Below, in pieces: positions 12,270-49,740 of a stretch of 64,000 nucleotides of DNA (within the stretch, counting starts at the first letter, position 1; each line of letters opens with the position of its first letter). The DNA lies in contig NC_086097.1 in the NCBI RefSeq assembly GCF_963921235.1, positions 122,328,001-122,392,000 of the forward strand, read 5' to 3'. Origin of the DNA: Mobula hypostoma (taxonomy: Eukaryota). The position numbers were made by a program, and so were the translations under genes. The notes beneath the pieces are model-generated. The model saw nothing but the letters and a program-made list of their open reading frames with translations. It did not search any database and was not told the origin of the DNA.

Positions 12270-13374
12270 ATGGATAAATCATCAGGGCTTGGCAAGGTAA
12301 TCCTTCGGACCCTGTGGGAGTCCAGTGCAGAAATTTCAGGAGCCCTAACAGAGATATTCAAATCATCCTTAGTCACGGTTGAGGTGCCGGAGGATTGGGG
12401 GATAGCTAATGTTGTTCTATTGTTTAAGAAAGTCTCTAAGCATAAGCCATGAAATTATGGGCCAGTGAGTCTGATATAAGTAGTGTGTGAGGTATTCTAA
12501 GGAACTCAGCATTTGGAGAGAGAGGGACTGATTAGGGATAGTCAAGATGGCTTTGTGTGAGGTAAGTTGTGTATAGCCAATCTTATAGAGCTCTTTAAGG
12601 AAGTTACCAGGAAAGTGTCACAATCACTGATTCGGCATCACAGCAGATTCGGCAATTATGCTCGTGAATATGCACATGTCAGCTAGTTATTATTTCATTG
12701 TGATAGTATTTAACTCCATTCATTCTGTTGTAGTTTTTCTCGACACTTAGACATAGCTACGCTTCATTATCTGCCTTGCCTGAGAAATTGGACTGTCGAG
12801 TCAACTGACTCTGAAGACTAGCGGTATTCATTTTATTCTTAGTTGTTCTTTTCAGCTGCAGTGTAGACTTCATTTTTCATTTGAGTGTTTTAGTCAATGG
12901 CCCTGTTTGGCCTAGTGTTTATTGTTTTCTTTTCTCATTTAACATTGCTCGCTTTAAAGTCTGTGAAATATCAACCCGCTTCAGTGTCTGTTAATCCACA
13001 CTTGGGCCATGTCTGAACCTCGGTGACAGAAAGCTGATGAAGGCAAGGCAGTGGAAGTTGTCTACATGGATGTTGGCAAGGTTTTTGACAGGATCCTACA
13101 TGGAAGGTTGGACAAGAAGGTTCAGTCACCCAGCATTCAAGATAAGGTAGTAAATTAGATTAGACGCTGGCTTTGTGGGAGAAGCCAGAGAGCGGTAGTG
13201 AATGGTTGGCTCTCTGGATGGAGGCCTACGACTACTGGAATGCCACGGGGATCAGTGCCAGGTCCATCTATATCAATGCTATGGTCCGGGTGCAAGTCGA
13301 TAGGACTTGGCAGATTTAGAGTTTACAATGAACTCGATGGCCCAAAGGGCCTGTTTCTATGCTGTAGTGCTCTA
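12270..13374 (+). mobile_element. CR1 RT fragment with 3' tail, interrupted by a solo LTR
   Basis: VPEDWGIANVV.LFKK; VTRK|ADEGKAVEVVYMD split by the insertion; tail GGGCCTGTTTCTATGCTGTAGTGCTCTAT. Confidence 0.85.
12616..13028. mobile_element. Solo LTR
   Basis: Termini TGTCAC...GTGACA; perfect 5-bp TSD GAAAG (12611-12615, 13029-13033). Confidence 0.85.
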
Positions 13375-13624
13375 TTTTTTTAAAACTTCTTGGAGTGCAA
13401 GAAGAGCGAGACTGCGCAGGCGCGTGATGTCAGCAGGACTGCGCGGAGAGTTTAAAAAGGCAGGTTGCTACCAACGGCTCTCCTTTGGATCGGGACTACA
13501 GAGCGTCGTGGGAGCTGAATTGTGAAGGAAGGCAGTTTTTTTTTTAAACTTCTTGGAGTGCAAGAAGGGCGAGACTGCGCAGGCACGTGACATCAGCAGG
13601 ACCGCGCGGAGAGTTTAAAAAGGC
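13375..13624 (+). promoter_or_regulatory. Duplicated ~88-bp promoter-like module of the CR1 5' end (period 163 bp)
   Basis: Copies at 13375-13461 and 13536-13624, each with TGCGCAGGCRCG (NRF1-like), TGATGTCA/TGACATCA (CRE-like) and TTTAAAAA (TATA-like). Confidence 0.6.
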
Positions 13625-13907
13625 GACCACCCTATACAGCGGGCAGCTGTCGGAGCGGGCAGCGGAGTGAGCAGTAGCAGAGTGTAGGGCTTTGGCTTCA
13701 ACGGGCTTCGGCGACAAACAGGAAGAGGCAAGAGCGAAGCGCCAACTTTTTTTCTCTCCCCCGCCCCCACCTCTTTCGCGAATCGGCCCGGACAGACAGG
13801 AACAGCAGGGCTCTCACAGCTAACGGTTTAAGAAGTTTGTCTGTTTGGCGAGGTAAGTGGGTGAGTAGACTTATTTTTCCTGTTTCATTCGTGTAGAATT
13901 AGATAGC

Positions 13908-14843
13908 ATGCCTGCAGGGTTAGTGCTTTGTTCAGGGTGTCAGATGTGGGAACCCTGGGAGACCTCCAGCCTCCCTGATGGCCACATCTGCGCCAGGTGC
14001 ACCGAGTTGCAGCTCCTCAGGGACCGTGTTAGGGATCTGCAGCTGCAGCTTGATGACCTACTGCTTATCAGGGAAAGTGAGGAGGTGATAGACAGGAGCT
14101 ACAGGGAAGTAGTCATCCCTAGGCTACAGGAGTCAGAACATTGGGTCACTGTCAAGAGAGGGAAGGGAAATGCCCGGATAGTGGAGAGCACCCCTGTGGC
14201 TGTCCCCCTCAGCAACAAATATCTTGTTCTGGATGCTGTTGAGGGGGATGACCTGACGCGGGATGCCCACGGTGACCGGGTCTCTGGCACTGAGCCTGGC
14301 GCTGTTGTGCAGGAGAGAAAGAGGGAGAAGAGAAATGCGGTAGTCATAGGGGATTCCATAGTCAGGGGAACAGACAGGAGATTCTGTGAGCCTGACAGAG
14401 ATACCCGCATAGTGTGTTGCCTCCCAGGTGCCAGGGTACGGGATGTCTCGGATCGGGTCCTGAATATTCTAAAGGGGGAGGGTGAGCAGCCAGTTGTCTT
14501 GGTACATGTTGGTACCAATGACATAGATAGGACAAAGGAGGAGGTCCTGAAGAGAGATTTCCAGGAGTTAGGAAGGAAGCTGAGAAGCAGGACCTCCAGG
14601 GTAGTAATCTCGGGATTGCTACCTGTGCCACGTGCTAGCGAGGGCAAGAGTAGTTGGATCAGGCAGATGAATGCGTGGCTGAGAGACTGGTGTAGGGGGC
14701 AGGGCTTCAGATTCTTCGATAATTGGGATCTCTTCTGGGGGAAGTATGACCTGTTCAAAAAGGACAGGTTACACCTGAACCCAAAGGGGACCAATATCCT
14801 GGCGAGAAAGTTTAATAGAGCTGTTAGGGAGGGTTTAAACTAA
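13908..14843 (+). CDS. CR1 ORF1p: CxxC..CxxC zinc finger, leucine-zipper coiled coil, SGNH/GDSL esterase
   Basis: 311 aa with ATG start; CSGC..CARC; LQLLRDRVRDLQLQLDDL; VIGDSIVRG, VHVGTND, DRLH. Confidence 0.92.
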   Translation: MPAGLVLCSGCQMWEPWETSSLPDGHICARCTELQLLRDRVRDLQLQLDDLLLIRESEEVIDRSYREVVIPRLQESEHWVTVKRGKGNARIVESTPVAVPLSNKYLVLDAVEGDDLTRDAHGDRVSGTEPGAVVQERKREKRNAVVIGDSIVRGTDRRFCEPDRDTRIVCCLPGARVRDVSDRVLNILKGEGEQPVVLVHVGTNDIDRTKEEVLKRDFQELGRKLRSRTSRVVISGLLPVPRASEGKSSWIRQMNAWLRDWCRGQGFRFFDNWDLFWGKYDLFKKDRLHLNPKGTNILARKFNRAVREGLN

Positions 14844-15021
14844 TTTGGCAGGGGGTTGGGAACCAGAATGATAGAGCGGAGGAAGGGGAAAACAGAAATA
14901 AATCTAAGATAGTGAGCAGTAAAGATGTCAGGAAAGACAGGCAGGTGATGGGGCAAATGTGTAGCCATTGGGATGAGTTGCAGTGAAATCAAAGCAAAAA
15001 GTATGAAATACTGGTCTTAAG

Positions 15022-17787
15022 GTGTTGTACTTAAATGCACGCAGCGTAAGGAATAAGGTGGATGATCTTGTTGTACAGCTACAGATTGGCAGGTATGATA
15101 TTGTGGCCATCACTGAGACCTGGCTAAAGGATGCATGTCTCTGGGAGCTGAAAGTCCAAGGATACACGGTGTATCGGAAGGATAGGAAGGTAGTCAGAGG
15201 GGGAGGCGTGGCTTTATTGGTAAGAAATGATATTAAATCATTAGAAAGAGGTGATATAGGATCGGAAGGTGCAGGATCTTTATGGGTTGAGCTAAGGAAT
15301 AGCAGGGGTAAAAGGACTCTGATGGCAGTTATTTATAGGCCTCCAAACAGCTGCGGGGATGTGGACTACAAATTACAACTGGAAATAGAAAAGGCTTGTC
15401 AGAAGGGCAGTGTTATGATAATTGTGGGGGATTTTAACATGCGAGTAGATTGGAAAAATCAGGTCGGCACTGGATCTCAAGAGAGAGAATTTGTAGAATG
15501 TCTGCGAGATGGCTTTTTAGAACAGCTTATTGAGCCCACTAGGGGATCGGCTGTACTGGATTGGGTATTGTGTAATGAACCGGAGGTGATTGGAGAGATT
15601 GAGGTGAAGGAACCCTTAGGAGGCAGTGATCATAACATGATTGAGTTCACTGTGAAATTTGAAAAAGAGAAGCCGAAATCTGACGTGTCGGTATTTCAAT
15701 GGAGTAAAGGAAATTACAGTGGCATGAGAGAGGAACTGGCCAAAGTTGACCGGAAAGAGACACTGGTGGGAAAGACAGCAGAGCAGCAGTGGCTGGAGTT
15801 TATGCGAGAAATGAGGAATGTGCAAGACAGGTATATTCCAAAAAAGAAGAAATTTTCGAGTGGAAAAAGGATGCAACCGTGGTTGACAAGAGAAGTCAAA
15901 GCCAAAGTTAAAGCTAAGGAGAGGGCATACAAGGAAGCAAAAATTAGTGGGAAGACAGAGCATTGGGAAGTCTTTAAAACCTTACAAGAGGAAACCAAGA
16001 AGGTCATTAAGAGAGAAAAGATTAACTATGAAAGGAAACTAGCAAATAATATCAAAGAGGATACTAAAAGCTTTTTCAAGTATATAAAGAGTAAAAGACA
16101 GGTGAGAGTTGATATAGGACCGATAGAAAATGATACTGGAGAAATTGTAATGGGCGATGAGGAGATGGCAGAGGAACTGAACAAGTATTTTGCATCAGTC
16201 TTCACTGAGGAAGACAGCAGGATACCGGCCACTCAAGGGTGGCAGGGAAGAGAAGTGTGCGCAATCACAATTACAAAAGAGAAAGTACTCAGGAAGCTGA
16301 ATAGGCTAAAGGTCAATAAATCTCCTGGACCAGATGGAATGCACCCTCGTGTTCTGAAGGAAGTAGCTGTGGAGATTGCGGAGGCATTAGCGATGATCTT
16401 TCAAAAGTCGATAGATTCTGGCATGGTTCAGGAAGACTGGAAGATTGCAAATGTCACTCCGCTATTTAAGAAGGGGGCAAGGAAGCAAAAAGGAAATTAT
16501 AGACCTGTTAGCTTGACGTCGGTGGTTGGGAAGATGTTGGAGTCGATTGTCAAGGATGAGGTTACAGGGTACCTGGAGGCATATGACAAGATAGGCAGAA
16601 CTCAGCATGGATTCCTTAAAGGAAAATCCTGCCTTACAAACCTATTACAATTTTTTGAGGAAATTACAAGTAGGCTAGACAAGGGAGATGCAGTGGATGT
16701 TGTATATTTGGATTTTCAGAAGGCCTTTGACAAGGTGCCACACATGAGGCTGCTTAACAAGATAAGAGCCCATGGAATTACAGGAAAGTTACATACGTGG
16801 ATAGAGCGTTGGCTGATTGGCAGGAAACAGAGAGTGGGAATAAAGGGATCCTATTCCGGTTGGCTGCCGGTTACCAGTGGTGTTCCACAGGGATCAGTGT
16901 TGGGGCCGCTTCTTCTTACATTGTACATCAACGATTTGGATAATGGAATAGATGGCTTTGTGGCTAAGTTTGCTGATGATACGAAGATAGGTGGAGGGGC
17001 CGGTAGTGCTGAGGAAACAGAGAGTCTGCAGAGAGACTTGGATAGATTGGAAGAATGGGCAGAGAAGTGGCAAACGAAGTACAACATTGGAAAGTGTATG
17101 GTCATGCACTTTGGCAGAAAAAATAAACGGGCAGACTATTATTTAAATGGGGAAAGAATTCAAAGTTCTGAGATGCAACGGAACTTGAGAGTCCTCATAC
17201 AGGATTCCCTTAAAGTTAACCTCCAGGTTGAGTTGGTAGTGAAGAAGGCGAATGCAATGTTGGCATTCATTTCTAGAGGAATGGAGTATAGGAGCAGGGA
17301 TGTGATGTTGAGGCTCTATAAGGCGCTGGTGAGACCTCACTTGGAGTACTGTGGGCAGTTTTGGTCTCCTTATTTAAGAAAGGATGTGCTGACGTTGGAG
17401 AAGGTACACAGAAGATTCACTAGAATGATTCCGGGAATGAGAGGGTTAACATATGAGGAACGTTTGTCCGCTCTTGGACTGTATTCCTTGGAGTTTAGAA
17501 GAATGAGGGGAGACCTCATAGAAACATTTTGAATGTTAAAAGGCATGGACAGAGTGGATGTGGCAAAGTTGTTTCCCATGATGGGGGAGTCTAGTACGAA
17601 AGGGCGCCCTTTCAGAACAGAAATGCGAAAAAAAATTTTTAGTCAGAGGGTGGTGAATCTATGGAATTTGTTGCCATGGGCAGCAGTGGAGGCTAAGTCA
17701 TTGGGTGTCTTTAAGGCAGAGATTGATAGGTATCTGAGTAGCCAGGGCATCAAAGGTTATGGTGAGAAGGCGGGGCAGTGGGACTAA
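15022..17787 (+). pseudogene. CR1 ORF2p: AP endonuclease and reverse transcriptase, with one premature stop
   Basis: APE motifs NARS, ETW, YRPP, GDFN, SDH; RT motifs YLDFQKAFD, GVPQGSVLGP, KFADD; TGA at 17530-17532 with the same frame continuing to 17787. Confidence 0.95.
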
Positions 17788-17960
17788 ATAGGATAAAATG
17801 GATCAGCTCATGATAAAATGGCGGAGCAGACTCGATGGGCCAAATGGCCTACTTCTGCTCCTTTGTCTTATGGTCTTATGGTCTTATAACAATGACTATA
17901 ATTTGGAAATCCAGGCTAAGATGCACATCTACAGAATGATCCTTCTCAGTTTCAGTATTC

Positions 17961-48417: not shown

Positions 48418-49740
48418 ACCATAATACCATAAGATTTAGGAGCAGAACTAGGCCATTCAATCCATTGAGTCTGCTCTGCCATTCCATCATAGTGGATTAT
48501 TTTATCCCTCTCAACCACATTCTCCCACCTTCTCCCCGTAACCTTTGAAGCCCTGACTAATCGAGAACCTATCAACCTCCACTTTAAGTAAACTCAATGA
48601 CTTGGCTTCCAGAGCTGTCTGTTGTAATGAGTTCCACAGAATCACCAACCTCTGGCTAAAGTAATCCTCTGTTCTCAAGAGAAACCTTGCCCCCTGCACC
48701 AGTTCCTCAGCTACACATTCATCTGTACTATAATCCTACTCCTGACCAGCACTGGGAGTAATCCAGAGGTTACTACCTTGGAGGTCCTATTCTTCAGCCT
48801 CTTCCCGAGCTCCTTATGCTCAATGCACAGGACCTCTTCCCCCTTTCTACCAACGTCATTGGCGCAGTGAGTACCGTGACCTCTGGCTGCTCACCCTTCC
48901 CCTTGAGAATCTTCAGCAGCCATTCTGAGACATCCTGGATCCGAGTACCTGGGAGGCAACATACCATCCAGGCATCACTTTTATGGACACAGAATCTACT
49001 GTCTTTTCCCCTAATTATCAAGTCTCCAATCATCATTTCTCTGCCTGACTTTACTTTTCCCTGCTGATCCTCGGAGCTGGCCGCAGTGCCACTAGCCGGG
49101 CTGCTGCTGCTGTGCCTTGATAGGTCATCACACTCCGACCCCAGTAGTATCCACATGTGTATACTTGTTACTGAGGGGAATGGCCAGAGGGGAGCCCTGC
49201 ACTGACTGCTTACTCCCCTTACTTCTCCTGGTGGTCACCAAGTTACGACTTGAAGCCTGCACTCTGAGTGTGGCCATCTCAGTAAAAGTCTCATCTATGA
49301 GGTTTTCAATCTCCCAGATTGCCCTGAATACTTCCAGCTCCACTCCTTGACCTTGTTAGTCAGAAGCTAACGTTCGGCATACTTCTTCCAGATGCAGTCA
49401 TCAGGGAGACTGTTAGGTACTCTGAAATCCCACTTCTCACAGAAGGAGCATTCCATTGCCTTAACTACCATCCAACCTGTACATGTTATACATCTAACTT
49501 CTCAAAAGTTCTATCCTGCGCCTGTTCTCAACCAAGCCTGTTGAGCCAAAGCCTGGCAACTCTAACACTATCCACTCCAACAATGGCCACTCCACTTACA
49601 TCTCGTTCCTTTTTATTAGCCCCTGCCTAAGATAACACAATGACTGCCAAAAACTTTCAAAAGGTCCCAAGCACTTTTTAAACCTGGTGCTGCCTCACCA
49701 ATGAACGACATCTCAACATGTTTGCAGAACTGCCACCCAC
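48418..49740 (-). pseudogene. Old internally deleted CR1: 5'UTR and esterase ORF1 remnant joined to a 3' tail, nested in a Tc1 element (~48250-50023)
   Basis: AIPLSNKY; IGDLIIRGKDSRFC..MVCCLPGTRIQDVSE..ILKGKGEQPEV, homologous to ORF1 at 13908. Confidence 0.85.

Follow-up and report, generated by a model that had tools for sequence, protein, structure and literature searches.

This work concerns the junction between the two open reading frames (ORFs) of a CR1 long interspersed nuclear element (LINE) in the genome of a ray, Mobula hypostoma. The copy lies in a stretch of 64,000 nucleotides, here called the window (contig NC_086097.1, positions 122,328,001 to 122,392,000 of the forward strand). 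According to passages of the literature, CR1 ranks first in abundance among the interspersed repeats of the chicken genome (PMC11835228), and canonical vertebrate CR1 (PMC13343379; subgroup 7 with an ORF1 of type IVB in PMC4120745) has the same organization as our element, i.e. an ORF1 that encodes an esterase, an ORF2 that encodes an APE endonuclease and a reverse transcriptase (APE-RT), and no poly(A) tail. The word ‘frameshift’ is absent from the main text of PMC13343379, PMC4120745 and PMC3905857, and their relevant passages give no mode of ORF2 translation. A search of the open literature, with the 1997 chicken and turtle CR1 papers, the Repbase reports and supplements outside its scope, found no description of frameshifting in CR1. 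The first 300,000 characters of the Atkins review mention HeT-A and TART as the only non-long terminal repeat (non-LTR) elements, and not CR1.

Three described systems are useful for comparison. In the Dictyostelium elements TRE5-A and TRE3-A the APE-RT-encoding ORF2 is said, in passages of PMC5911963, to require a -1 frameshift. This is a precedent among non-LTR elements, although these are amoebal and have an unrelated ORF1; passages of PMC5006619 give nothing further. L1 and SART1 resemble the CR1 layout in that a bicistronic LINE RNA yields a little ORF2 protein (ORF2p) via the translation of ORF1; according to passages of PMC5972666, termination-reinitiation has been demonstrated for the ORF2 of SART1 and put forward for that of L1. 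In either element an AUG lies at the junction or close to it and the ORF2p produced is free, whereas several CR1 families have no AUG before the APE motifs. The third system is viral programmed -1 ribosomal frameshifting at U_UUA_AAC, e.g. in infectious bronchitis virus, which uses the same heptamer in the same register as CR1 (passages of PMC5009743). The polymerase is in the -1 frame both at these viral sites and in CR1. The gag-pol layout of retroviruses likewise has the polymerase in the -1 frame. At viral -1 sites a pseudoknot or stem-loop follows within a few bases, and the CR1 junction differs from them in that no such 3′ structure is predicted. The original prediction for this locus, of a frameshift that joins ORF1 and ORF2 in a ‘gag-pol-like’ fusion, is apt as regards the layout, but ORF1 encodes an esterase and not a Gag protein.

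We consider it likely that programmed -1 ribosomal frameshifting at U_UUA_AAC yields the ORF2p of CR1, in the form of an ORF1-ORF2 fusion. Most ribosomes would stop at the end of ORF1 and release the esterase ORF1 protein, and a minority would slip one base back, with tRNA-Leu and tRNA-Asn on the heptamer. The slipped ribosomes would pass the ORF1 stop and read a linker of 40-110 codons into the APE-RT domains, giving an esterase-linker-APE-RT fusion. The adjacent stop and a G-rich motif at +11 to +20 may stimulate the slip, the latter most likely via a bound protein. In tandem tRNA slippage the Asn is incorporated, and the main trans-frame junction should read G-L-N-L-I-W-Q; the peptide first proposed for proteome searches, with G-F-K-L or G-L-K-L, is not the one to be expected. 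The features of the junction are as follows:

13908..14843, plus strand: ORF1, 311 amino acids, with N-terminal Cys pairs, a GDSL/SGNH esterase domain (PF13472, E 2e-15) and a Leu-Asn-stop end
14834..14840, plus strand: slippery heptamer T_TTA_AAC in the ORF1 register, the putative -1 shift site (from the sequence, copies and families)
14841..14843, plus strand: ORF1 stop directly 3′ of the heptamer, TAA or TAG across families
14851..14860, plus strand: GGGGG-NN-GGG motif, +11 to +20 past the heptamer, a candidate stimulator (from 12 lineage representatives)
14828..14986, plus strand: -1 frame, the N-terminal linker of ORF2 (FKLIWQG...), shortened in this copy and continuing into APE in sister copies
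14948..14950, plus strand: ATG in the -1 frame (Met39), specific to the family of the window copy

ORF1 ends in GGT TTA AAC TAA, which sets the heptamer in the X_XXY_YYZ register. The -1 frame is open at 14828-14983 with a stop at 14984-14986, and the ORF2 frame opens at 14977, carries a TGA at 15004-15006 and is open again at 15007-17529. The positions first reported were all correct on re-reading. By chance, an in-register slippery heptamer is expected from three random ORF1 codons in 0.1% of cases. The bare 7-mer is common (27 matches on both strands of the window), therefore the evidence for a slip site is its position and conservation, and not its presence.

CR1 is abundant in the ray genome, where a single upstream ORF1 motif has 6098 exact matches. 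We took the first 90 of these copies in genome order, 80 of which could be scored for frame (five had more than one mismatch in the heptamer and five had no ORF2 match). ORF2 lies in the -1 frame of the heptamer in 55 of the 80, compared with 14 and 11 in the other two frames, and the exact heptamer is present in 66 of the 90. Further families were retrieved with protein queries and their copies assigned by hand on linker type. T_TTA_AAC followed by TAA or TAG predominates in 10 of the 10 families (exact in 21/22, 18/20, 5/10, 20/20, 16/17, 6/6, 5/5, 4/4, 12/16 and 3/3 copies). The linkers between heptamer and ORF2 vary by family in both sequence and length (120-303 nt), and each of their modal lengths, 123, 189, 183, 204, 303, 120, 174 and 177 nt, is divisible by three. 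Two earlier predictions, that the -1 frame of the heptamer leads into ORF2 of the family and that the heptamer is conserved across families, both hold.

The same arrangement is found in bird-type elements. Four of 19 metagenome loci reach the junction, whereas viral and prokaryote contigs yielded no usable DNA of non-ray relatives. Two of the four, L121 and L132, carry the exact heptamer; L121 reads TCT TTA AAC TAG with a -1 frame that is open into APE. Among 131 longer proteins there are 21 bird gene models, many from one species, in which an FKL-type start (20 FKL, 1 FKP) lies upstream of the APE motif. In the ray locus L241, positions 2106-2141, which span the heptamer, stop and G motif, have no variant at 15% or more in four runs from other samples and 20 sites just upstream do vary, in a comparison where depth is lower over 2106-2141 and divergent contigs are lost.

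The conservation extends to the choice of codon. For this comparison we used nine ray families and the bird-type L121, with family C, L132 and L122 dropped owing to internal stops. The terminal Leu is TTA and the terminal Asn is AAC in 10 of 10 lineages, and the preceding codon, which encodes Gly, Ala, Thr, Asp or Ser, ends in T in all ten. Elsewhere in ORF1 just 3 of 29 degenerate columns with an invariant amino acid keep one codon, and all five other invariant Leu columns differ in codon. TTA accounts for 23 of 155 Leu codons and AAC for 19 of 63 Asn codons in this set, and fourfold sites agree at 0.33-0.62 between distant lineages. Synonymous changes, in other words, do not break the heptamer.

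A similar pattern is evident in proteins. The end of ORF1 could be scored in 158 of 253 homologues, and it is Leu-Asn (LN) in 108, which come from named sharks, rays, bony fish, lizards and turtles and include bird-type unnamed proteins. Glu, Lys, Gln, Met and Trp, which have no codon ending in T, precede LN in 1 of the 108, compared with 41 and 40 at the next two positions upstream. Among divergent relatives of ORF1 nine end in GN (eight in QGN) and three in KN; these ends are compatible with G_GGA_AAC and A_AAA_AAC. Both heptamers are listed with U_UUA_AAC among the shiftiest in mammals in passages of PMC5009743. The distant esterase ORF1s ending in QGN, SGN, SKN or AKN are P0291, P0293, P0294, P0296, P0310, P0311, P0317, P0360, P0361, P0304, P0379 and P0381, and a further two end in FFR. 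Weaker esterase ORF1 matches in teleosts, which we take to be of L2 type, do not end in LN.

A further line of evidence is the lack of a start codon. One young family (L180-L199, L241 and L242) has more than 100 stop-free ORF1 copies at 98-100% identity. The heptamer is present in 20 of 20 of its copies, and the 18 copies with an open -1 frame all have no Met in its first 200 codons. In L241 and L242 the frame is open for 1004 codons. Their first Met, codon 207, lies past both the Asn (78) and Glu (105) motifs of APE, which we take to be catalytic, and a stop shuts the frame 3 codons upstream of the heptamer. The near-identical, stop-free ORF1s and the open ORF2 frame of this length suggest that the family was probably active recently. 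In families A, Y, E120 and E174, too, most copies are without a Met ahead of the APE Asn; in 15 of 19 open copies of A and in 5 of 5 of E120 the first Met follows this residue. A linker Met is present in families B, C, D303 and H. In the family of the window copy the ATG at 14948 is Met39 in 13 of 13 open-frame copies. Reinitiation at the ATGs at 14948 or 14957, offered earlier as an alternative, is therefore conceivable for this family, but it does not extend to A, Y, E120 and E174. One codon upstream, G_GGT_TTA (14831-14837) forms another slippery heptamer in register, which overlaps the first; it is found in families with GAG or GGG before the GGT and is absent in the young family.

Downstream of the stop, every position from +11 to +15 and from +18 to +20 is G in 11 or 12 of 12 representatives. 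These positions include three third positions of -1 frame codons, therefore the constraint looks to be at the nucleotide level. The nearest likeness is the signal of the virus of porcine reproductive and respiratory syndrome (PRRSV), where, in passages of PMC5009743, CCCANCUCC lies 11 nt 3′ from the site of the shift and is bound by nsp1beta and poly(C)-binding protein. Each signal is a short motif whose spacing of about 11 nt is constant, and each lacks an RNA structure. However, the PRRSV motif is C-rich with bound proteins, and that of CR1 is G-rich. As this spacing matches and no stem-loop is predicted, we infer that the G motif may be read by a bound protein. No C-rich long-range partner for it was found at a site common to L240-L242.

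Several observations weigh against frameshifting. No stable 3′ stem-loop is predicted for the 12 representatives (minimum free energy z-scores of -1.99 to +2.47, from a folding model that does not include pseudoknots), and a G-quadruplex is predicted in just 5 of the 12. Among the motif-picked copies 25 of 80 are out of the -1 frame and 24 of 90 have no exact heptamer, which we read as decay, and two of the four bird-type loci (L122 and L123) have a damaged heptamer. Glu, Lys, Gln, Met and Trp are also rare at positions -6 and -7 of ORF1 (11 and 5 of 108), thus part of the pattern at -3 may be structural. The exchange to GN or KN is seen in protein only, as no DNA of these relatives was found in viral or prokaryote contigs. 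The lineages compared are related, so that the counts are not independent. Lastly, codon 5 of the -1 frame is ATG, TTG or ACG in 6 of 11 representatives, which were chosen for an open -1 frame. We conclude that the CR1 junction is a real and deeply conserved one, of recoding type.

The last of these observations leads to the rival that survives best, termination-reinitiation, in which translation resumes just past the ORF1 stop at an AUG or a near-cognate codon of the -1 frame, the G motif positions the ribosome and free ORF2p results. In addition to the start-like codon 5, codon 6 is TTG in Y and codon 4 is ATG in H, and reinitiation as well as frameshifting, with downstream signals, has been described for non-LTR elements (passages of PMC5972666). 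The first start-like codon comes only at codon 27 in family B and codon 19 in family C, however, and codon 5 is Ser in 12 bird models. An in-frame ATG at codon 4 or 5 is found in 2 of 11 representatives, which falls short of a stop-start layout with an AUG next to the stop. Ten of 11 representatives have UGGGA in the 150 nt upstream, but mostly at two distances (96 or 117 nt), on what we read as Trp codons, and it is absent in L121. Neither the heptamer, invariant at synonymous sites, nor the GN and KN exchanges are explained by a restart, and on balance we judge it unlikely.

We give distinctly less credit to a join at the RNA level, by splicing at the AG just before the heptamer, or to an ORF2-only RNA with TTTAAA and the G box as its promoter. 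A contig of run X17 does seem to skip 83 nt between GT and AG (L241 2020-2104), a length that shifts into the -1 frame, yet this joint was found in one of seven runs as a single contig at a depth of 43 compared with about 22,000, with 21-23 letters on one side, and the acceptor context is purine-rich. The recurrence of TTTAAA in units of the 5′ untranslated region (UTR) would suit a separate RNA, but such an RNA from the young family would still be without an AUG until codon 207, and neither version needs the heptamer to be in the register of ORF1. In the same run, over L241:1500-2900, ORF1 far exceeds ORF2 in contig depth, a measure that cannot rank these parts.

The least probable explanation, which we can hardly credit, is that there is no recoding, with Leu-Asn kept for the protein, its codons inherited and ORF2 started, through leaky scanning or internal entry, at internal codons that vary by family, for although families B, C, D303 and H have a linker Met and three other ORF1 columns are codon-invariant too, three adjacent third positions are fixed where distant lineages match at only 0.33-0.62 of fourfold sites, and in the young family no AUG precedes the Asn and Glu of APE.

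If ORF2p is indeed made by frameshifting, it would carry the ORF1 esterase, which has a proposed membrane-targeting role, at its N-terminus, and would be produced in a low, constant proportion. ORF2 starts as now annotated would be wrong, and constructs for CR1 assays would have to keep the junction intact. It would also be an ancient vertebrate -1 signal without apparent RNA structure, in a cassette of about 100 nt. A broader proposal is that esterase CR1s from sharks to birds, together with distant animal relatives that would use G_GGA_AAC or A_AAA_AAC in its place, obtain their reverse transcriptase in no form other than a fusion, via a -1 signal of a new kind that comprises the heptamer, the stop and, 11-20 nt downstream, an unstructured GGGGG-NN-GGG motif that is read by a trans-acting protein. 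This is possible, although we regard it as doubtful. With a protein-read G motif, the CR1 signal would mirror that of PRRSV in G-rich form and would give the host a handle on the transposon that is commonest in sauropsids and chondrichthyans.

The copy in the window is itself a broken CR1 copy, with these further features:

13380..17887, plus strand: near full-length CR1 LINE copy (5′ UTR, ORF1, ORF2 and a 3′ tail of short repeats), ends approximate, the start from sister-copy coverage and the tail by direct reading
14975..14990, plus strand: leftover unit of an imperfect 16-nt tandem repeat, the other unit of which is gone
15004..15006, plus strand: TGA in the ORF2 frame, specific to the window copy (0 of 29 other closest copies)
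15007..17787, plus strand: ORF2 body with APE endonuclease and reverse transcriptase (PF03372, PF00078) and a further stop at 17530-17532

Two lesions had been predicted between the -1 frame and ORF2, a deletion of 3n+1 nucleotides near 14977-14985 and one point stop, and comparison with other copies bears out both. The copy lacks 16 nt after 14979-14985 relative to 4 of 4 sister copies with an intact linker, so its linker is 173 nt compared with the modal 189 nt of its family, and with the loss of this one repeat unit ORF2 no longer lies in the -1 frame. The TGA at 15004 occurs in this copy and in none of the 29 others closest to it.

The same loss is frequent in the genome. Exact patterns give 1318 intact and 380 deleted copies (~22% deleted), the deleted ones in two crossover forms. 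In a haplotype comparison of the 47 of 76 copies that had more than 85% coverage, deleted and intact copies have haplotypes in common and none of 40 informative sites tracks the deletion, which argues that the loss recurs. Copies with an intact frame persist in older as well as younger haplotypes, and the 16-nt repeat looks like a slippage hotspot in reverse transcription or replication. We had considered that the deleted copies form one non-autonomous subfamily that uses an overlapping GTG/TGA, and rejected this in view of the common haplotypes and the absence of a tracking site. A TGA in the -1 frame is common to 28 of the 30 closest copies, that of the window included. We also rejected this as an argument against the -1 layout; it is an artefact that stems from ranking the copies against a deletion-bearing query, and it is reversed by the motif-picked copies.

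As a whole the element fits canonical esterase-type vertebrate CR1 by its ORF1, its ORF2 domains and its 3′ tail. The Pfam matches are to a GDSL/SGNH esterase in ORF1 and to APE and reverse transcriptase in ORF2. Sister-copy coverage begins within 13360-13400, and the tail, read directly, is formed by TCTTATGG-type repeats near 17866-17887 and is not poly(A). The closest named homologues are ray proteins, and the homologues in general are repeat-derived proteins of shark, ray, fish, amphibian, reptile and bird. One shark- or ray-type CR1 ORF1 among them, P0022, is labelled as a Pseudomonas aeruginosa SGNH hydrolase at NCBI and is likely to be host contamination. In the 5′ UTR we see by eye two units of about 85 nt with TTTAAA (13376-13462 and 13539-13625), possibly promoter modules. 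Directly upstream of the element is an older, truncated CR1 ORF2 fragment (13027-13375 and 12270-12623), and elsewhere in the window there are more than 20 further ORF2-like matches and a decayed ORF1 on the minus strand (48681-49450).

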